In this document: positions 1,823-21,706 of the stretch, piece by piece
Numbering within the stretch: position 1 is the stretch's first letter
Layout of the letters: each line of letters opens with the position of its first letter
Virus genome (UHGV): UHGV-0156931
Source: a virus
Length of the DNA: 26,169 nt
Strand: one strand, 5' to 3'
Translations under genes and position numbers: made by a program
Notes under the pieces: generated by a model
Seen by the model: only the letters and a program-made list of their open reading frames with translations
Database searches by the model: none
Told to the model about the DNA's origin: nothing

Positions 1823-3154
1823 TCACTGAAGTAAAAAAACTTTTAAAGCATCTTTCACAATATTTGTTGGTTCACCAATACCGCCACTACCTTTTAAAAA
1901 ATGGTATTCACTCATTTCTGCCCATTGTCTTTTTATATTTTCCTCAGTAGGTAAAAGAGATGAGTTTTCAGATAAGTATTTGTAAACTATTCCAAATATA
2001 GCATATTCATAATTATCTACATTATATTCACTTGTTTGATATGAAAATTTAGACAAACCAAACAATTTCATGATTGATTGAGCATCAACTTTATCTTCAA
2101 GAAAGTTGAGAGCTAACTCTCGGTTAAAAGTGTAGATTATTATCGCTAGAGTCCTGTAATAACAATATCCATAAATATATTTGTTGCTAATTTTGTCGCC
2201 TGATAGTAGTTGGTATATTTCAACATATCTAGCAAGTGTTTCAACCTCACGTAATGATAATTTACTACTTTCAATGAACTGTAAGAAAATATCTTCGCTG
2301 GCTTCTACTGCAGCGGTCAGCCTTTCAGATTGCTCACATAGCATCATCCAATGATTTTTGGAAGTTAAAGTGTCATTATAATTATCTTCCTTAAAGGTAA
2401 CAGGAAGGCTGTATGTAAATTTTATAAATTTGTCAAGATAACGGTTGGAGTCTACAGAAGAGCCATAGATATGATTTATGGATGCTTTTAGTTGAGTTGT
2501 GTTTGCAATTAATAAAAAGTTAATGTTTTTTATATCAAAAACATGTTTTATATTTTCAATAATAGAAATGGCAAAACTAGGCTTACATCTGTCTAACTCA
2601 TCTATAATTATTGTTAGTTTACTTTCTCCAGCTAATTTGGTTAGTACTTCTTTTAGAGCAAGAACGTTCTTTTGTGCCTCGATATGATCTTCTAACAGAG
2701 CCTCGATGGTTCCATCGATAGCTGAATTTGCAGCGTCTTTGATAACCTCTTCAAATTCCTCATTAATTTCATCCGCATTTTGTTTTAATACCCAACCAGC
2801 ACCAGCTTTGAGTACAGTCTTAAGTCCGAATCTGAGGGCTGGTAATGCCTTAGATATTAATTCCTTTTTTTCATCGCTATTATATAGAGCTGCAATTGCG
2901 GCCATTATTGTAAGTATGGGAGCATCGTTGTGATCTTCAGTAAAAGCATCTATATAAACTACTTTATGATTGGTCGAGTTTATTTCAATTAAGGATGCTA
3001 ACTTTTTTGAAAACTCTGTTTTTCCAGTCCCCCAGTCCCCATCTATGACCATAGGTGAAACAGGAATATTAGACTCTAGCAAACTTATTATTTTTTCTGC
3101 AATGGCTTTTCTTTTATATTCATCACGTATATCGAAAGTTATATCTGTGCTCAT
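1823..3154 (-). CDS. KAP-family P-loop NTPase (accessory cargo in the lysogenic operon)
   Basis: 443 aa. Walker A GDWGTGKT (GxWGxGKT/S is the KAP signature), Walker B IIIDELDRC. RBS AAGGAAA upstream of the ATG at 3154. Visibly AT-rich compared with the phage backbone. Sits between cI and int. Confidence 0.8.
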   Translation of the reverse strand: MSTDITFDIRDEYKRKAIAEKIISLLESNIPVSPMVIDGDWGTGKTEFSKKLASLIEINSTNHKVVYIDAFTEDHNDAPILTIMAAIAALYNSDEKKELISKALPALRFGLKTVLKAGAGWVLKQNADEINEEFEEVIKDAANSAIDGTIEALLEDHIEAQKNVLALKEVLTKLAGESKLTIIIDELDRCKPSFAISIIENIKHVFDIKNINFLLIANTTQLKASINHIYGSSVDSNRYLDKFIKFTYSLPVTFKEDNYNDTLTSKNHWMMLCEQSERLTAAVEASEDIFLQFIESSKLSLREVETLARYVEIYQLLSGDKISNKYIYGYCYYRTLAIIIYTFNRELALNFLEDKVDAQSIMKLFGLSKFSYQTSEYNVDNYEYAIFGIVYKYLSENSSLLPTEENIKRQWAEMSEYHFLKGSGGIGEPTNIVKDALKVFLLQ

Positions 3155-3167
3155 TCATATTTCCTTA

Positions 3168-3350
3168 TTATTTGATGCATGTTTTTTTGGATTTACTGAT
3201 GGTTCCATCATTGCAAACAAATTTTCCATCAGAGGTACAGTGAGAGACACCTCCCTTTTTCCCAGAACAAGGATAATTTTTAGCATAGGTAGTTAGTGGG
3301 TTTAATAACAAAGAGCATGATAAAACCACAAAAAAAAACTTACCAAGCAT
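3168..3350 (-). CDS. Small exported Lys-rich, 4-Cys peptide (60 aa), unknown function
   Basis: N-terminal signal-peptide-like segment [23 protein letters not shown]. Predicted mature ~37 aa with 4 Cys and 8 Lys. GGAGG RBS 5 nt upstream of the ATG. Starts ~15 nt after the cI stop and ends 13 nt before the KAP gene start. Confidence 0.5.
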
Positions 3351-3365
3351 AGTTTCCTCCAGGTA

Positions 3366-4022
3366 TTATCTAACATACTTAACTGTTAAGCTTATAATTT
3401 TTCCAATTATTTCAACATCTTCTATCTTGCACTCGAAGGCTCTGTTTCCACCTTCAACGAAAATTCTTCCACCGGGTAAACGAGTGATGTCGCGGATTGT
3501 TATTTCGCCATCAATACTTATTACCCATTTACCATCACGTATATCATCAAATTCTTTATCACAAATAAATTCAGAATTGTTATCTGTGATGACAAAAGGT
3601 TTTTTAAACGTAGAGGGTAGAAATCCCTTATCAAAAATATAAAAACCGTCTTCCTGCAATGCTCCATCAGACAATAAATATTTTACTACTTCTATAGTAT
3701 TTGTATTTGCTGATGCTTGCTTTGAACCATGCCCTGTTGTTAGCCAATTAAGCGAGGTACCCGTTTCAAGGGCGCACTGGATTACCCAATCTGCCGGAAA
3801 AATATCACGCATATAACGCGTTGCCATGGTGCTCTTAGAAACACCTAAATGATCACAGAGAGCCTGACGGGTACCGAACCCGTATGCTTCAACCAAACGT
3901 TCTATGGCTTTCTTACCGCCGCTATTGAAATCCACAAATCCTCCAAAGAAATCCAAAATTCGTTGACAGATTCCAAAAGCGATCTTAAAGTTGAACCAGA
4001 AGTCTTCTTTTGGAGCCTTCAC
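3366..4022 (-). CDS. cI: Immunity repressor, 186 CI type (N-terminal HTH)
   Basis: 218-aa ORF starting at GTG 4022. Segment ERLVEAYGFGTRQALCDHLGVSKSTMATRYMR...CALETGTSLNWLTTGHG matches the HTH region pattern of 186-type CI as recalled. First gene of the leftward operon ending in int. True start may be internal. Confidence 0.8.
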   Translation of the reverse strand: MKAPKEDFWFNFKIAFGICQRILDFFGGFVDFNSGGKKAIERLVEAYGFGTRQALCDHLGVSKSTMATRYMRDIFPADWVIQCALETGTSLNWLTTGHGSKQASANTNTIEVVKYLLSDGALQEDGFYIFDKGFLPSTFKKPFVITDNNSEFICDKEFDDIRDGKWVISIDGEITIRDITRLPGGRIFVEGGNRAFECKIEDVEIIGKIISLTVKYVR

Positions 4023-4080: not shown

Positions 4081-4284
4081 ATGACACCTAACATTTCAAT
4101 TACTCTGAATACACCACATGTCACAATCGAACGTTATAGCGAACTGACTGGCCTTTCTATTGATACGATTAACGACATGTTGGCTGATGGCCGACTACCT
4201 CGTCATCGTCTTCGTAAAGACAAAAAACGTGAAAAGGTAATGATTAACCTGGCTGCTCTGACTGTTGATGCTTTGTCTGCTTAA
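4081..4284 (+). CDS. apl: Apl/Cox-type excisionase and switch regulator (small HTH protein)
   Basis: 67 aa, first gene of the rightward operon opposite cI. Basic C-terminal segment ([20 protein letters not shown]). Position and size fit the Cox/Apl family. Confidence 0.75.
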
Positions 4285-4348
4285 TAGACGTCTATTTTCG
4301 CAATAAGACGCTGAGTTCGATTTTGCGATAAGTTCGGAATTGAAAACC

Positions 4349-4858
4349 ATGTTTGATTACCAAGTTTCCAAACATCCACATTTTGATGAAGCCTGTCGTG
4401 CATTCGCACTGCGCCACAACCTGGTGCAGCTGGCAGGACGTGCAGGAATGAATGTGCAGATTCTGCGAAACAAGTTGAACCCTGCTCAACCTCATTTATT
4501 AACCGCACCAGAAATTTGGCTGCTTACCGATCTGACTGAAGATTCGACGCTGGTAGATGGCTTTCTGGCTCAGATTCACTGTCTGCCATGTGTACCGATT
4601 AATGAGGTAGCAAAAGAGAAACTGCCACATTACGTCATGAGTGCAACCGCAGAGATCGGACGTGTTGCTGCAGGTGCGGTATCTGGCGATGTAAAAACCA
4701 GTGCAGGTCGTCGTGATGCTATCAGCAGCATTAACTCTGTAACACGACTGATGGCGCTGGCTGCTGTTTCATTGCAGGCCCGTTTACAGGCTAATCCTGC
4801 GATGGCGAGTGCAGTTGATACCGTGACTGGCCTCGGTGCTTCATTCGGTTTGCTGTGA
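4349..4858 (+). CDS. cII: CII-type regulator (phage 186 CII / CP76 family)
   Basis: ORF 4340..4858 begins at TTG; the ATG at 4349 gives 169 aa starting [12 protein letters not shown]..., matching the recalled length and N-terminus of 186 CII. Immediately follows apl. Confidence 0.85.
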
Positions 4859-4865
4859 GGTGCTT

Positions 4866-5099
4866 ATGCTGACGAAAGAACCATCATTTGCATCGCTGCT
4901 GGTAAAACAAAGTCCGGCAATGCACTACGGTCACGGCTGGATTTATTTACCTTGTGGGAAAAAGTGGCATCCAAGTTTTGAATTACAACCCCGGCAACAG
5001 GCTTACCGGGGAAGAAATAAAAAGCGATTCCTACAAAGATTTATGGTTAACGTGGCAAACAACCTGCGAACCAAGCGAAAAGTTTTTCTTGGAAGCTGA
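4866..5099 (+). CDS. Small early protein in the fil position; paralogous 5-prime end to the ORF at 5723
   Basis: ATG at 4866 with GAGGTG upstream. 77 aa, MLTKEPSFASLLVKQSPAMHYGHGWIYLPCGKKWHP... The first ~28 codons lie in a 63-bp segment repeated at 5686-5748. 3-prime end overlaps the convergent antisense ORF 5047..5505. Confidence 0.4.
   Translation: MLTKEPSFASLLVKQSPAMHYGHGWIYLPCGKKWHPSFELQPRQQAYRGRNKKRFLQRFMVNVANNLRTKRKVFLGS
4883..4945. repeat. 63-bp direct repeat, copy 1 (one mismatch versus copy 2)
   Basis: atcatttgcatcgctgctggtaaaacaaagTccggcaatgcactacggtcacggctggat recurs at 5686-5748 with C for T. Coordinates +/-2. Confidence 0.85.
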
Positions 5100-5505
5100 G
5101 GTTTACATCGTCAACCCGACCACAGGCAATAGCAGCTCTTTTGTAGGCAGGGTTTAACAAAGATCCGAATGTTGTGGAGTCAGAGTGATGCAAAGCTTTC
5201 AATTTTTGTGCAATGAACTGTGGAGACAATTCATCCTCGGCGTAAAGCAACTCACCATATTGTCGGCTTTGTACGCTTGCTCGTTCCGCAATAATAGCTG
5301 GTTGCCATACAAGTTGGATTGTTGCGATTACAACAACAGGAAAAGCGAACAACCATTCCAGACCTGTATTAGCAAATACAGCTGTTCCGCTTATAAGTTG
5401 GATTGCTGTCATTAATTTATCAGCTCGACCATGGAACGTTGCTGTCATTAGTTCAAGGTAATAACAGTAGTGTAATTGGAAGTATTCGGAGCTTTGTTTA
5501 GTCAT
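5047..5505 (-). CDS. Antisense-oriented membrane protein (152 aa), candidate moron
   Basis: ATG at 5505 with AGGAAT-type RBS. Hydrophobic segment LEWLFAFPVVVIATIQLVW. Transcribed opposite to the early operon and visibly lower in GC than its flanks. No recognised family. Confidence 0.5.
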   Translation of the reverse strand: MTKQSSEYFQLHYCYYLELMTATFHGRADKLMTAIQLISGTAVFANTGLEWLFAFPVVVIATIQLVWQPAIIAERASVQSRQYGELLYAEDELSPQFIAQKLKALHHSDSTTFGSLLNPAYKRAAIACGRVDDVNLSFQEKLFAWFAGCLPR

Positions 5506-5514
5506 GCCGGATTC

Positions 5515-5595
5515 CTATTTCTTCTCTTGCCCCGGTTCAGGCTGAGGTGCTGGAGCCGGGCGAGGGAGTACATGAAAGTTGTCTGTTTCTGACAT
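5515..5595 (-). CDS. Possible 26-aa Pro-rich peptide upstream of the antisense membrane-protein gene
   Basis: ATG at 5595 with a strong AGGAG RBS (7-nt spacer). Translation MSETDNFHVLPRPAPAPQPEPGQEKK. Stop TAG at 5515-5517, 10 nt before the next ATG. Very short, so it may be chance. Confidence 0.25.
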   Translation of the reverse strand: MSETDNFHVLPRPAPAPQPEPGQEKK

Positions 5596-5685
5596 CAGTT
5601 TTCTCCTTTGAGGGGTAGATGATTGTTAGCACAAATAGTCTACCACTGAGGCACGCGCCGGGCGTGTAGAAAAATTCCCGGCACA

Positions 5686-5748
5686 ATCATTTGCATCGCT
5701 GCTGGTAAAACAAAGCCCGGCAATGCACTACGGTCACGGCTGGATCAT
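5686..5748. repeat. 63-bp direct repeat, copy 2
   Basis: See copy 1. Here the repeat supplies the 5-prime part of ORF 5723..5965. Confidence 0.85.
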
Positions 5749-5965
5749 GGGTGAGGATGGTAAACGCTGGCATCCATGTTATTCACAAGATGAATTGCTG
5801 TCTGAAGTGACCACGAGGAAACGGAGAAAGTCCAAATGTATGCGGCAGAAAGTGAAGTGGTTTATCAGTTTCGTTACAGAGGGGATAGTTATTCAGTACC
5901 TGAAGATGATTTGCTCTGTTGTTATCCGTCGTTGTCGGGCGATGGCAGTTACTTTTTCACACTAA
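5723..5965 (+). CDS. Small early ORF (80 aa), second paralogue of the fil-like gene; extent uncertain
   Basis: MHYGHGWIMGEDGKRWHPCYSQDELL... parallels the copy at 4866 beyond the identical DNA (GKKWHP versus GKRWHP). No good RBS. 3-prime half overlaps ORF 5836..6060 in another frame. Confidence 0.3.
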   Translation: MHYGHGWIMGEDGKRWHPCYSQDELLSEVTTRKRRKSKCMRQKVKWFISFVTEGIVIQYLKMICSVVIRRCRAMAVTFSH

Positions 5966-6060
5966 AGGATGGGACGTTTTTACGGGGAGAGCAGGTTAAA
6001 GAGACGGTACGAAAAAATGTATCTCCCCTTGAGCGTTACCGTAAGAACAAAGAACGATAG
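5836..6060 (+). CDS. Hypothetical early protein (74 aa)
   Basis: ATG with GGAG upstream. Acidic, plausible composition (MYAAESEVVYQFRYRGDSYSVPEDDLL...). Overlaps the previous ORF. Confidence 0.45.
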   Translation: MYAAESEVVYQFRYRGDSYSVPEDDLLCCYPSLSGDGSYFFTLKDGTFLRGEQVKETVRKNVSPLERYRKNKER

Positions 6061-6082
6061 TTGCGTTTTGGGGATATGAATT

Positions 6083-6424
6083 ATGGCAATTAATGGCGCT
6101 GCGGCGACTGTTCCATTAAGCCCCGGTGAACGCCTGAATGGACTTAATCACATTGCGGAATTAAGAGCGAAAGTTTTTGGCCTGAATATTGAGTCAGAGC
6201 TTGAGCGGTTTATTAAAGATATGCGTGATCCACGGGATATCAATAATGAACAAAATAAACGGGCACTGGCTGCCATATTCTTTATGGCAAAAATTCCGGC
6301 TGAACGTCATAGCATCAGCATTAATGAGCTGACCACTGACGAAAAGCGGGAGCTGATTAAAGCAATGAATCATTTTCGTGCAGTGGTGAGCTTATTTCCC
6401 AGACGGCTAACCATGCCGAATTAA
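6083..6424 (+). CDS. Hypothetical early protein (113 aa)
   Basis: Intact ORF in the early operon between cII and A. No recognisable motif. Confidence 0.55.
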   Translation: MAINGAAATVPLSPGERLNGLNHIAELRAKVFGLNIESELERFIKDMRDPRDINNEQNKRALAAIFFMAKIPAERHSISINELTTDEKRELIKAMNHFRAVVSLFPRRLTMPN

Positions 6425-6491
6425 CCAACTAATGAAATTCATGGCGTAAATCCGCCAGGCATCCCTTTATCTAAATTCAGGAGAATTGATT

Positions 6492-6725
6492 ATGCGTAAT
6501 ATTGAAACCCTCACGACTAAAACCGGACCGGATGATGCAGGGCTTAATATTTTACTGACAGAGGCTCGTCTGGAAGAACGCCGGGCAAGGGCTGAAGCAA
6601 TGGCAGCTCGCCTTGATAGCCTGGCGTGTCATATCTCATCCCTTCAGCTAAACCACGTGGAAGCAGCAGAACTACTGCGTGTAACTGCTGAAGCAATCCA
6701 GAACGAAGCGCAGGAGATCCACTAA
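6492..6725 (+). CDS. Hypothetical early protein (77 aa, predicted helical)
   Basis: ATG at 6492 with AGGAG upstream (ORF 6486 begins at TTG). Stop overlaps the next start. Confidence 0.5.
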   Translation: MRNIETLTTKTGPDDAGLNILLTEARLEERRARAEAMAARLDSLACHISSLQLNHVEAAELLRVTAEAIQNEAQEIH

Positions 6726-11102: not shown

Positions 11103-12800
11103 ATGCATAGAATTGTTAAAGCTCATCTTGATAACTTCGTGAAAAGTCACGGTATTGAAAATCATCAAGAGGACACGCAGTTCGAGCTATTTTGTAATAA
11201 AGCTTTGCTGTCTTCTCGTATAAGTATGGATTATGAAATTGACGATGTAACAACCGGGGCTGGTGATGATGGCATGGATGGTGTTGCCATCATAATTGAT
11301 GAAGAATTGTGTATATCTTCTGAAGATGCTACTTCAATATTTTCCTCATTACGTAAAAATCATGATGTTGATATTGTTTTCATTCAATCAAAGCGTAGTG
11401 AGTCTTTTGATTTAGGTGATTTTTTAAAGTTTAAAGCTTCCGTTTTTAGATTTATAGAGGATTCTCCTTACTTATGTGTGGATGAAATTCAAAAAAATGC
11501 AAGGGAAGTTTTTGATGTCATAATAAAAAATGTACCTAAGATAAGAGGTGGGCGACCAACTTTTACTGCTAAATATGTTGCAACTGGTTTATATAAAAAA
11601 CCTAAAGAGTTAGAGAATGCTCGGAAGTTATTTGCAAAAGAAATTGACGAGTTGGGATATTTCTGTAATGTTAGCGTTGAGTTTGTTGATCGTGATGAAT
11701 TAACACGTACTTGGATTGATACTTATTCAGTTGTCAATGCTGAATTGCCATTATTTAGTAATGCACCACTTCCCAAAATTAATGGTATAGAAGAAGCTTA
11801 TCTTGCTGTCGTTAAAGCAAAGGATTTTGTTGGTAATTTATTGATGACGGACGAGGGGTCTCTCCGTAATCATGTTTTTGTTGAGAACGTCCGGGCGTTC
11901 TTGGGAATTGATAATCCTGTTAACGCATCGATTGCTGAGACAATTAAAAATAAAGATGCCGCTTCACGATTTCCTGTTTTAAATAATGGAATAACAATTG
12001 TTAGTCCGGATGTAAAACTTCAAGGGAGTATTTTACATCTAGAAAATTTTCAGATAGTTAATGGCTGTCAGACATCAAATGTGCTTTACGAATGCCGCGA
12101 TTCCTTAGATGATACGATGATGGTTAACTTGAAAGTCGTAGAGACATTAAACGAAGATGTTTTTTCAGAATTGGTTCGAGCGACTAACAGTCAGACTAAG
12201 GTTGATGAGACTCAGTTCTATTCTCTTCGTCCAATAATAAAGAAAGTAGAAGCGTACTTTGATACTTATGAAGGGCAGGATGGTCGTTTATATTTAGAAA
12301 GACGTGAAAGACAATTTATCGGTAGAGATATACCTGCAGTTAGAGTATTTTCAGTTCATATGGCAGCTAAATGTGTAGCAGCTATGTTCTTCCGTCGGCC
12401 AGATCTTTCATACAGATACCCTAAAAAAATGTATGAATTGTTGGCTGAGAAAATATTTTCTAATGATACCAAGGAGATTGTATTTTATTCAGCATGTTTA
12501 ACATTATATAGATTACACTTACTTACTTCTAATGCTGATATTCCACAAAATATCAGGAAGTACAAATGGCATTTAATGGCGGTAGTTGGTGCTTTAATTG
12601 CCGGAAAGGATGTGCCTAATTTTGGCTCTAAGAAAATGGATGCGTATTGTAATAAAATCATCACTGAAATGACAAAGCATGGTGATAAAATAAAAGCTAC
12701 TTTCCAGAAGGCTGTTGATATTGTTTTGTCAATTGATGATATCACTGATGATAGAATGAAAAGGCAAGCTATTTTAGAGGAAATGCTTGCCAAGATTTAA
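11103..12800 (+). CDS. 565-aa cargo protein: Mrr-like PD-(D/E)xK nuclease N-terminus with an AIPR-like body; candidate abortive-infection/defence protein
   Basis: Intact ORF, RBS AAGGGA. N-terminal TGAGDDGMDGVAIIID...VDIVFIQSKRS resembles the GDxGxDG...QxK signature of Mrr-type nucleases. Later NGITIV...IVNGCQTSN motif recalled from AIPR-type proteins (unverified). No Walker A. Strongly AT-rich. Bracketed by terminators. Confidence 0.85.
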   Translation: MHRIVKAHLDNFVKSHGIENHQEDTQFELFCNKALLSSRISMDYEIDDVTTGAGDDGMDGVAIIIDEELCISSEDATSIFSSLRKNHDVDIVFIQSKRSESFDLGDFLKFKASVFRFIEDSPYLCVDEIQKNAREVFDVIIKNVPKIRGGRPTFTAKYVATGLYKKPKELENARKLFAKEIDELGYFCNVSVEFVDRDELTRTWIDTYSVVNAELPLFSNAPLPKINGIEEAYLAVVKAKDFVGNLLMTDEGSLRNHVFVENVRAFLGIDNPVNASIAETIKNKDAASRFPVLNNGITIVSPDVKLQGSILHLENFQIVNGCQTSNVLYECRDSLDDTMMVNLKVVETLNEDVFSELVRATNSQTKVDETQFYSLRPIIKKVEAYFDTYEGQDGRLYLERRERQFIGRDIPAVRVFSVHMAAKCVAAMFFRRPDLSYRYPKKMYELLAEKIFSNDTKEIVFYSACLTLYRLHLLTSNADIPQNIRKYKWHLMAVVGALIAGKDVPNFGSKKMDAYCNKIITEMTKHGDKIKATFQKAVDIVLSIDDITDDRMKRQAILEEMLAKI

Positions 12801-20805: not shown

Positions 20806-21199
20806 AGCGGTGCCTTATGTCCGCAATAACCCGGACAAACTGCATCTGTTTGTGGATAACGGTTCGCTGGTTGCCACGGGGGCCAGCTCCATGTCATGGG
20901 AGTACCGCTATACCCTGAACGTGGTGATAGAGGATTTCAGCGGCGACCAGAATCTGCTGATGGCCCCGGTTTTACTGTGGCTTCGGGATAACCAGCCCGA
21001 TGCCATCAATAACCCGGCGTTACGGGAAAAGCTATTCACCTTTGATGTGGATATTTTGCGCAACGATGTCTGTGATATCAGCCTTAACCTGCAACTGACG
21101 GAACGTGTGCTGGTCAGCACTGACGGCAGTGTGTCGAGCGTTGAAGCTGTAGCAGAACCCGATGAACCTGAAGAAATGTGGACGGTGAAACGTGGCTGA
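20768..21199 (+). CDS. R: Tail completion protein R (P2 gpR family)
   Basis: ORF 20747..21199 begins at TTG; GTG at 20768 has AGGAG upstream. KPQSLRHALNKAVPYVRNNPDKLHLFVDNGS... is colinear with P2 gpR as recalled. Start uncertain. Confidence 0.8.
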   Translation: MNKPQSLRHALNKAVPYVRNNPDKLHLFVDNGSLVATGASSMSWEYRYTLNVVIEDFSGDQNLLMAPVLLWLRDNQPDAINNPALREKLFTFDVDILRNDVCDISLNLQLTERVLVSTDGSVSSVEAVAEPDEPEEMWTVKRG

Positions 21200-21638
21200 A
21201 CTGCAGAAGGTGGACGACTGGCTGAGTGCCTTGCTGGCGAATCTGGAACCAGCCACGAGAAGCCGCATGATGCGCCAGCTGGCGCAGGAACTGCGCCGGA
21301 CACAGCAGCAGAATATCAGGATGCAGCGCAATCCAGATGGCAGCAGTTATGAACCGCGCAGGGTAACAGCACGTAGCAAGAAGGGGCGCATCAAACGTCA
21401 GATGTTTGCAAAGCTGCGCACCACAAAATACCTGAAAACTGCCGCCAGCGCCGACTCTGCCAGCGTACAGTTTGAAGGCAAGGTGCAGCGCATTGCCCGC
21501 GTTCACCATTACGGCCTGCGAGATCGCGTCAGTCGTAAGGGACCGGAGGTGCGTTACGCAGAGCGTCGCCTTCTGGGTGTAAATGATGATGTTGAGGCAA
21601 TGACCCGTGACATGATTCTGCAATGGCTGGCGGGGTGA
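21192..21638 (+). CDS. S: Tail completion protein S (P2 gpS family)
   Basis: GTG start overlapping the R stop. 148 aa. Position and size match P2 gpS. Confidence 0.82.
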   Translation: MAELQKVDDWLSALLANLEPATRSRMMRQLAQELRRTQQQNIRMQRNPDGSSYEPRRVTARSKKGRIKRQMFAKLRTTKYLKTAASADSASVQFEGKVQRIARVHHYGLRDRVSRKGPEVRYAERRLLGVNDDVEAMTRDMILQWLAG

Positions 21639-21642
21639 TCTT

Positions 21643-21660
21643 TGTATCAGCACTGATACA
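21643..21660. promoter_or_regulatory. Candidate late-promoter activator site (TGT-N12-ACA with extended dyad) upstream of V
   Basis: TGTATCAGcaCTGATACA is a perfect 8-bp inverted repeat that also fits TGT-N12-ACA. Lies 5 bp after the S stop and ~47 bp before the V start. Spacing to V is shorter than the canonical -55 placement. Confidence 0.4.
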
Positions 21661-21706
21661 AGTTGCAGCACTGCCGCCTTTCTTCCCCTGATGGCAACCT
21701 TTCCCT

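Follow-up and report, generated by a model that had tools for sequence, protein, structure and literature searches.

A proline-rich micropeptide gene and a SLATT-like membrane protein gene form a conserved pair antisense to the early operon of a Fels-2-type prophage

Two genes antisense to the early lytic operon

The virus genome UHGV-0156931 (26,169 nucleotides; this whole stretch of DNA is called the window below) represents an Escherichia coli prophage of the 186/Fels-2 type (Peduoviridae). Here we describe a two-gene cassette that lies on the minus strand of the window, directly behind cII and fil and opposed to the early lytic operon. Its first gene encodes a proline-rich micropeptide and its second a membrane protein that resembles the SLATT effectors. 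Judged from sequence comparison, the pair is likely a conflict module that recurs in many temperate phages. The two genes are:

5515–5595, minus strand: gene for the 26-aa proline-rich micropeptide MSETDNFHVLPRPAPAPQPEPGQEKK; the only constrained and always-open frame here, without RefSeq annotation
5047–5505, minus strand: gene for the 152-aa SLATT-like membrane protein; phrog_6315, RefSeq WP_000166365.1 ('hypothetical protein')

A first-pass annotation, made from the letters of the sequence, had proposed two minus-strand open reading frames (ORFs) of 26 and 152 aa, and both are found at 5515–5595 and 5047–5505. The ribosome-binding site AGGAG that it assigned to the small ORF is present as AAGGAG at 5608–5603, 7 nt before the ATG, and the gap between the ORFs, given there as 10 nt, measures 9 nt. 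That only minus-strand ORFs are well supported across 5047–5595 holds for 5100–5595 but not for 5047–5099, where the plus-strand gene fil (4866–5099) and the 152-aa gene run tail to tail and share their last 53 nt. The cassette is indeed lower in GC (0.443, versus 0.500 for the window and 0.495 for cII), but to call it AT-rich was an overstatement. The immediate 300-nt flanks have a GC content of 0.49–0.51, and the genes further downstream (5723–6424) likewise have 0.444. For the 152-aa gene on its own, GC is 0.423 and GC at third codon positions (GC3) is 0.346; the corresponding values are 0.495 and 0.41 for cII, and gpA has a GC3 of 0.569.

Codon comparisons were made between the window and the copies in Fels-2, Citrobacter, Klebsiella, Enterobacter and Yersinia, among which there are no indels. 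Of the 84 differences from Fels-2 in the 152-aa frame, 64 affect the third codon position; the ratio of nonsynonymous to synonymous substitution rates (dN/dS) in this frame is 0.04–0.06 (0.04 against Fels-2). The other frames over this gene have a dN/dS of ~1 or above, or contain 4–11 stops. Only the 26-aa frame combines constraint with an open reading in all 7 close relatives; its mean ratio of nonsynonymous to synonymous polymorphism (pN/pS) is 0.17. Of 62 IMG/VR contigs, 60 have an intact large ORF and all 62 an intact small ORF, and the variable sites are distributed as 79/46/137 over the first, second and third codon positions. With a dN/dS of ~0.05 for the large ORF, a pN/pS of 0.17 for the small one and this degree of intactness, both minus-strand ORFs are, on the evidence of their sequence evolution, real genes.

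The opposite assignment, in which the minus-strand ORFs are spurious and the plus strand carries the true genes, has been used in the annotation of two phages. In Fels-2 (NC_010463; L001 in our numbering of homologous loci), the 135-aa STM2733.1 (3034–3438) is annotated on the early-operon strand directly over both cassette genes, as is the 221-aa gp008 (2812–3477) in Yersinia phage vB_YenM_42.18 (L004). This plus-strand frame is open in 32 of 41 distinct homologues. However, it is broken in the other 9, has a dN/dS of 0.8–2.1, is split in the window into pieces of 76 and 38 aa and has no family matches, whereas homologues of the constrained minus frame fall into 170 clusters, with identities down to 25%, and its fold is predicted with confidence. 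We therefore give the plus-strand assignment next to no credence. Of the two plus-strand ORFs (4954–5157 and 5185–5415) that the first-pass annotation had named as the possible expressed genes, the one at 5185–5415 is rejected on the same grounds (dN/dS ~1, broken in 9 of 41 homologues). Since this frame evolves neutrally, STM2733.1 and gp008 are very probably wrong-strand calls, and the annotation of these reference phage genomes can be corrected.

The exact 152-aa protein is encoded on at least 1000 public contigs, always with the label 'hypothetical protein'. Three individual copies deserve mention. At an Enterobacter wuhouensis locus (L010, 4001–4456) the large gene has an in-frame stop at codon 86, and in a viral contig (L072) it is shortened; in both, the micropeptide ORF is intact. 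The third copy lies on a 1.5-kb contig labelled as part of a Parachlamydiaceae metagenome-assembled genome (JBKEAL010000276.1, L007). It has Fels-2-type flanks and 89% protein identity to the enterobacterial cassette, and the contig is almost certainly a mis-binned contaminant of that genome.

The 152-aa protein is SLATT-like

SLATT proteins are SMODS- and SLOG-associating effectors with two transmembrane (TM) helices. They occur in type I CBASS, DRT10/UG17 and DRT3, and as accessory proteins in RADAR, and are normally activated by a cyclase, reverse transcriptase or SLOG partner. They are widespread and are predicted to be effectors that form pores in CBASS, DRT and similar systems (PMC9226505; bioRxiv 10.64898/2026.04.29.721553), and the mode of their activation is described as an open question in the DRT10 preprint (bioRxiv 10.64898/2026.04.29.721553).

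The 152-aa protein aligns end to end with phrog_6315, a PHROGs family of 'unknown function'. A word-indexed search returned only 152-aa Enterobacterales proteins as homologues. A full HMMER scan of 1.84 billion representatives yielded 170 clusters, nearly all of them standalone proteins of 150–165 aa, and a sequence search of the PDB with the 152-aa protein returned nothing. An alignment of 102 family members served for an AlphaFold (AF2) model and for profile tests. Among the conserved residues of the protein are E18, R27 and G148.

The AF2 model (predicted local distance difference test score 93.2, predicted TM-score 0.85) is a helical-hairpin membrane fold. In it, a long N-terminal helix (residues 6–43) runs into the first hydrophobic segment and is followed by a short loop, by a helix at 50–67 that continues into 69–88, and by three short helices at the C-terminus. 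Hydropathy analysis gives a strong TM segment at 51–67 (Kyte-Doolittle value 2.06), preceded by a weaker one at 31–47 (1.21). The one clear TM helix of the first-pass annotation thus corresponds to the strong segment, but with the predicted hairpin and the weaker segment before it, the protein is likely to have two membrane helices. Model and hydropathy together predict the architecture that is typical of SLATT, a two-helix membrane hairpin with flanking helices.

Profile searches point in the same direction. The NCBIfam model SLATT_4 is matched by 37 of the 102 family members (best E-value 2.2e-05) and SLATT_1 by 10, while no unrelated NCBIfam model is matched by more than 6. The SLATT_4 matches are co-linear over the hairpin region, for example with residues 24–103 on profile positions 25–112 of 154. 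In Pfam, the family gives single weak matches to SLATT_fungal, SLATT_4 and PycTM. When the model was compared with predicted viral structures in BFVD using Foldseek, ~10 of the top 21 matches were annotated as SLATT (probability 0.9–1.0; query-normalised TM-score, TMq, 0.44–0.57). SLATT proteins make up most of the matches that carry a name (TM 0.5–0.57), and one relative is named 'SLATT family 5' in nr. The first-pass annotation had recognised no family; with three weak and mutually independent signals, namely a family-wide profile signal, fold matches and this name, the protein can now be described as a remote, sub-threshold relative of SLATT. Because all signals lie below the curated thresholds and the window protein itself has no match, we call it SLATT-like rather than SLATT and leave formal membership open.

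A role as holin was considered and ruled out. The prophage has a holin of the HP1 family among its own lysis genes, and the 152-aa gene lies far from these and antisense.

A proline-rich mini-gene accompanies the family

In every lineage sampled, the gene for the SLATT-like protein is preceded by an ORF of 20–52 aa with a proline-rich C-terminal half, which ends 5–22 nt (usually 9–10 nt) before the main gene and whose stop codon usually lies within or beside the main-gene Shine-Dalgarno sequence (SD). The lineages share the core H-[VI]-x-P-[RK]-P-x-P, which occurs once in a six-frame translation of the whole window. The window-group peptide is MSETDNFHVLPRPAPAPQPEPGQEKK and the Yersinia peptide MADTEDFHVLHRPAPKPQPEPNEDKK; that of a P2-like Yersinia phage contains DFHILHKPAPPEEKK, and the Pasteurellaceae/oral-group peptide is MKIEKEERSHVPPRPTPQPKPR (21 of 22 contigs). 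Further peptides end in RHVPLRQKPPVPPKPPKEN, DYQPPRPRPTPPPK and RKPPQTPTPPPPAEKK.

An upstream proline-rich ORF was found for 11 of 13 family members, compared with 1 of ~125 other long ORFs taken as a control, and the pair is kept as a pair in 62 of 62 and 21 of 22 viral contigs. By these comparisons the small ORF is a conserved partner across the family and not an incidental one. None of the peptides is present in a collection of 15 billion called proteins, which implies that they have never been called as genes.

One locus (L013) carries two extra mini-ORFs, at 4476–4550 and 4570–4638, just downstream of its SLATT-like gene. Both bear the motif (HGHVPPKPKPPKPKK and FHIPPRPRPPDPGPK) and have no second large gene behind them; they may be remnants of a tandem cassette or independent peptides.

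Two other ideas about the peptide were discarded. No longer homologue was found in which a proline-rich segment is fused to the main protein, as in a 'Rosetta stone' arrangement. An Rz1-like spanin, a signal peptide or a lipoprotein is excluded as well: the peptide has no Cys, lipobox or hydrophobic leader, and the prophage has its own LysB/LysC.

Putative transcription and boundary signals

The cassette is accompanied by the following signals:

5637–5645, minus strand: putative extended −10 element TGGTAGACT, ~41 nt upstream of the small-ORF ATG, read from the sequence
5652–5666, no strand assigned: GC-rich palindrome CACGC-GCCGG-GCGTG at the upstream cassette boundary
5657–5682, no strand assigned: hairpin GCCGGG...CCCGGC overlapping the palindrome, from the alignment of cassettes
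5603–5608, minus strand: SD AAGGAG of the small ORF, read from the sequence and conserved in the alignment
5513–5517, minus strand: small-ORF stop TAG overlapping the AGGA SD of the 152-aa gene, read from the sequence
4989–5011, minus strand: terminator-like hairpin CCCCGGTAAGCCTGTTGCCGGGG followed by TTGTAATT, from a consensus scan; within fil, 36 nt beyond the stop of the 152-aa gene

The TGGTA...T of the putative −10 element (TGnTAnnnT) is kept in 8 aligned cassettes, including Yersinia copies with 36–73% protein identity. Conservation of the cassette starts abruptly at the palindrome/hairpin (5652–5682), beyond which the flanks differ between hosts. The arms of the palindrome co-vary, with CATGC/GCATG in L004, and CCACG/CGTGG together with ACCGGG/CCCGGT in L011. 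Seen in only 8 sequences, this covariation is no more than suggestive; possible roles for the element are those of an operator, insulator or recombination site.

The overlap of stop codon and SD and the 9-nt gap have the geometry of translational coupling. At the other end of the cassette, the stem of the terminator-like hairpin is kept in Fels-2 and other copies while its loop varies. The A-rich tail of this hairpin lies on the plus strand, which predicts that it stops cassette transcripts only. Among the relatives, L016 has a sigma-70-like promoter site, and hairpins resembling intrinsic terminators are present in L084, L016 and L019.

In the leader and junction mRNA no conserved structure was detected. 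The z-score of the minimum free energy is +0.79, the covariation term of RNAalifold is unfavourable, double changes occur in 2 of 25 pairs, and Rfam gave no match at E ≤ 1. An attenuator or riboswitch-like leader is ruled out by this lack of a significant or covarying structure and of an Rfam match.

The cassette arrived with a second fil allele

Alignment with relatives delimits an inserted segment, the features of which are:

4886–5688, no strand assigned: 803-bp segment missing from 'empty-site' relatives, comprising the rest of fil-A and the two-gene cassette; from a three-way alignment with Fels-2 and phage 813R9 and coverage gaps in 50+ phage records
4880–4942, plus strand: left copy of a 63-nt direct repeat (5' end of fil), 97% identical to 5683–5745 at a spacing of 803 nt
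5683–5745, plus strand: right copy of the 63-nt direct repeat, from a repeat search
4866–5099, plus strand: fil allele A, a complete cell-division-inhibitor gene (Pfam Phage_186_Fil, E-value 1.1e-23, 83 bits; RefSeq annotation)
5723–5965, plus strand: remnant of the resident fil allele B (phrog_32377 positions 19–97 of 98), from alignment to the intact 98-aa fil of 813R9

Close relatives with 94–97% identity (813R9, 4LV2017 and others) have the order cII-fil-DUF5347 without the 803 bp. In a megablast search of phage genomes, relatives from Klebsiella, Escherichia and Salmonella were likewise 94–97% identical and lacked ~800 bp; only Fels-2 has the segment. By this comparison, the 803-bp insert brought a different, complete fil allele together with the cassette and left behind the 63-nt repeat and a second, 5'-truncated fil. 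The remnant of allele B has lost its first 6 codons and its ribosome-binding site; just an internal Met is left, and there is an in-frame stop at 5636–5638. RefSeq lists it as an 80-aa Fil-family protein that starts at the internal Met. An intact 74-aa ORF (5836–6060, phrog_4312) with its own GGAG overlaps the remnant in a different frame.

A 2.2-kb query (window 4300–6500) is 99.9% identical to E. coli NC101, NGF1 and others, in which the prophage adjoins rcdA/ybjJ. Among complete E. coli genomes, 1324 of 5426 match the query and just 40 cover at least 80% of it, i.e. include the insert. In each of the 62 viral contigs the cassette follows cII in convergent orientation, with four types of junction: the Fels-2 type, the window type, one with orf74 only, and a Yersinia type without any fil. 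In Fels-2-like phages (the context of 55 of the 62 contigs) fil allele A always accompanies the cassette.

Elsewhere, the pair is found after cII in antisense orientation (L016), between int-side genes and cI (L013), in lambdoid left operons (L018, Providencia phage) and antisense in a P2-like early operon (L004). The Pasteurellaceae-type copy is flanked by PDC-S25 (SIR2-like) and PDC-S42, and further copies adjoin HicAB or DpnII/Nmad2, which are defence-type neighbourhoods. In at least 6 independent phage contexts the placement is antisense. The first-pass annotation had proposed an independently transcribed moron, and its reading as a moron is partly supported. The cassette sits between genes that are adjacent in 94–97% identical phages and is bounded by the 63-nt duplication; it has a conserved, putative extended −10 (TGnTAnnnT) upstream and a terminator-like hairpin with T-tail downstream; and unrelated temperate phages also carry it, mostly against the direction of the adjacent genes. 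The site directly after cII/fil is a previously undescribed cargo site.

Setting in the prophage

The minus strand carries, in order, int, a KAP NTPase gene, a 60-aa ORF and cI. The early lytic operon on the plus strand comprises an apl/cox-like gene (4081–4284), cII (4349–4858) and fil (4866–5099), followed by DUF5347, DUF2732, TraR-like, dam and the gpA replication endonuclease.

Between int and cI lies a very AT-rich island (GC 0.28–0.37) with minus-strand genes at 1823–3154 and 3168–3350. It encodes the KAP-family P-loop NTPase (443 aa), which matches the PADLOC candidate defence family PDC-S20 (E-value 3e-171) and, more weakly, PifA/QatA, and the 60-aa ORF, which has a signal-peptide-like N-terminus and several Cys and matches NCBIfam PRK10040.1-2 with 109 bits. 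At 11103–12800 (plus strand), a 565-aa AIPR-domain protein matches PADLOC AbiU (E-value 4e-112); its gene occupies the classical P2 cargo site between a DinI-like gene and the portal gene. From the PDC-S20 and AbiU matches, the prophage has at least two recognisable defence-type genes besides the cassette. A further ORF of up to 185 aa (21114–21671, minus strand), opposed to the late operon and without a Pfam match, lies between the virion-morphogenesis and baseplate-V genes. At this place NC101 has a 250-aa hypothetical gene, and the site is possibly another cargo site.

A possible mechanism and its alternatives

How might the cassette work? We tentatively propose that it is transcribed leftward and autonomously in the lysogen, that its two genes are translated in a coupled manner, that the larger protein permeabilises the membrane when a phage attacks and is regulated by the peptide, and that early transcription of the prophage itself silences the module. 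For this model as a whole we put the odds slightly below even. Transcription would start at the extended −10 element near 5640 and run leftward, in the lysogenic direction and convergent with cII and fil, to end at the one-way hairpin within fil. The single mRNA would code for the 26-aa peptide and, 9 nt on, for the 152-aa protein, and translation of the second gene is probably coupled to that of the first because the peptide stop codon lies in the next gene's SD. In the inner membrane, the 152-aa protein is predicted to form a helical hairpin whose two ends, together with the small helical C-terminal domain, face the cytoplasm. In the lysogen, it would reside in the membrane and permeabilise or depolarise it when a competing phage infects, leading to abortive infection (Abi) or exclusion. 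The micropeptide would regulate this protein as its dedicated partner, by binding it in the manner of an antitoxin or by gating its translation. At the prophage's own lytic switch, strong transcription of the early operon would oppose the weak cassette promoter and silence the module, a mechanism that would confer self-immunity and account for the repeated antisense placement. The first-pass annotation had seen a layout like that of exclusion and toxin modules, a reading that fits the findings above.

Several observations weigh against this model. The window protein matches no family in Pfam (E ≤ 10), NCBIfam (E ≤ 1) or PADLOC (E ≤ 1), and PADLOC-DB v2.0 has no match for the 152-aa protein, the peptide, P0226 or P0025. 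SLATT_4 scores in the family reach ~21 bits against a curated cutoff of 55, the Foldseek E-values in BFVD are weak (0.02–1), and fold searches of the PDB gave only generic helical hairpins and no solved SLATT-like structure. The first membrane helix (31–47) is weakly hydrophobic. No cyclase/SMODS/CD-NTase, SLOG or reverse transcriptase partner is present in the window or in 10 independent contexts. At TGGTAGACT a −35 element is not recognisable, and a consensus scan requiring one made no promoter call. In L019 the pair lies among tail genes and is co-oriented with them, so that antisense placement is not obligatory. Searches of the literature returned no paper on Fels-2 STM2733.1 or STM2733-2736, on this locus, or on SLATT with a proline-rich ORF. 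An antisense unit in the early operon is not reported in the transcriptome paper on phage BTP5 (PMC7067206); BTP5 was not among our tblastn hits.

The same two genes could serve mainly to stabilise the prophage rather than to defend it, as a toxin-antitoxin (TA)-like addiction module with the membrane protein as toxin and the micropeptide as labile antitoxin. As in type II-like TA or Abi pairs, two tightly spaced small genes are conserved together; the small upstream gene, the 9-nt gap and the coupled translation recall type II TA operons, the palindrome overlapping the promoter region could be an autoregulatory operator, and some copies lie beside other TA pairs such as HicAB. Yet neither product has a recognisable DNA-binding domain for autoregulation, neither matches TA or defence models, and an integrated prophage gains little from addiction; we consider this role unlikely. 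Computation does not distinguish it from an Abi role, since many TA pairs are Abi systems. Somewhat less unlikely, in our estimate, is that the small ORF is only a regulatory upstream ORF with a functionless free peptide. Here, the proline-rich nascent chain would slow or arrest the ribosome on the next SD, and the output of membrane protein would follow the translation status (elongation factor P, EF-P, and release factors). Much of the pattern described above would suit such a leader peptide: in most lineages the stop is inside or adjacent to the downstream SD, at a short, conserved gap, the C-terminal half of the peptide is conserved and the N-terminal half variable, the proline-rich half often ends in Pro, Lys or Arg, and PPP or PPPP runs occur in several lineages. 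However, the window peptide has no consecutive prolines (PRPAPAPQPEP), and classical EF-P-dependent stalling is therefore not predicted for it. Neither an alternative mRNA structure nor sequestration of the SD was found, leaving no conserved structure to transduce a stall (z = +0.79, unfavourable covariation), and the two extra motif-bearing mini-ORFs of L013 have no gene downstream to regulate.

One may also ask whether the proteins are secondary and the main effect of the cassette is exerted on fil and cII, by convergent transcription or an antisense RNA, which would tune the decision between lysis and lysogeny. Its position would be suited to this. In L011, L016 and all 62 close viral contigs, the cassette directly follows cII and converges with it, its predicted transcript overlaps the 3' end of fil, and the Yersinia-type hairpin reaches the 3' end of cII. 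But strong purifying selection acts on both encoded proteins, the pair also occurs at other places (int-cI, lambdoid left operons, tail genes, defence islands), and the window terminator stops 130 nt short of cII; we regard this explanation as very unlikely. A further, more novel idea is that the micropeptide is the sensor of the system. Its H-V-x-P-R-P-x-P core, which resembles that of proline-rich antimicrobial peptides (PrAMPs), might contact the ribosome exit tunnel or DnaK, as nascent chain or free peptide. When an infecting phage perturbs host translation, termination and re-initiation at the stop/SD overlap might then be altered, or the peptide might come off the SLATT-like protein, in either case unleashing the pore former. 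We rate this as quite improbable. If true, it would amount to a self-contained 'translation-surveillance' form of abortive infection that needs no nucleotide second messenger, and a natural partner and a trigger logic would be known for the first time for SLATT proteins that stand alone.

Comparison with known systems

The peptide cores HVLPRPAPAP and HVPPRPTPPPKPR resemble the YLPRPTPPRP and YLPRPRPP of PrAMPs such as oncocin, pyrrhocoricin and apidaecin, which we take as a lead. Such low-complexity similarity easily arises by chance, and the cassette peptide differs in that it is made inside the cell and, in the window copy, is not cationic. In its arrangement, the cassette recalls the lambda OOP antisense RNA and the convergent-promoter interference of phage 186, as a leftward transcript, here predicted, converges with cII at the end of the cII region. 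In contrast to these, it encodes two constrained proteins, ends inside fil and occurs at other genomic positions elsewhere.

Two-gene Abi modules of the P4 gop-beta-cII type share the layout of a small first gene and a tightly spaced second one on a temperate element, and gop-beta-cII is reported to be anti-phage (PMC9122126). There is no sequence relationship, and the first product of the cassette is a 20–52-aa proline-rich peptide without a DNA-binding fold. The likeness to phage morons such as P2 tin/old/fun, lambda rexAB and the P2/P4 hotspot cargo (Rousset et al. 2022, PMC9122126) is broader: the cassette is present or absent between near-identical phages, is slightly lower in GC, has promoter-like and terminator-like signals and shares its prophage with defence cargo (PDC-S20, AbiU). 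It differs in lying antisense inside the early lytic operon after cII/fil rather than in the described P2 hotspots, and in that its insertion duplicated part of fil. Should it act in exclusion or abortive infection, it would be a compact defence system of ~0.6 kb that PADLOC, Pfam and NCBIfam have missed, and the position immediately behind cII would count as a third cargo site of 186/Fels-2-type phages.

The closest comparison is with SLATT itself, especially SLATT_4 (NF033632 / PF18186). Both have a size of ~150–190 aa, a two-helix membrane hairpin flanked by cytoplasmic helices and neighbourhoods on mobile elements and beside defence genes, and SLATT provides the co-linear sub-threshold profile matches and the top viral fold matches of the 152-aa protein. 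Unlike SLATT systems, the cassette has no cyclase, reverse transcriptase, SLOG or ncRNA partner. It has instead an obligatory proline-rich mini-ORF immediately upstream, an arrangement that, to our knowledge, is not described for SLATT. We thus see here a SLATT-like family in which an invariant, never-annotated proline-rich mini-gene stands in the place of the nucleotide-signalling or reverse-transcriptase partner, and which, if the proposed role in exclusion or abortive infection is true, would offer a simple two-component system for the study of SLATT gating.

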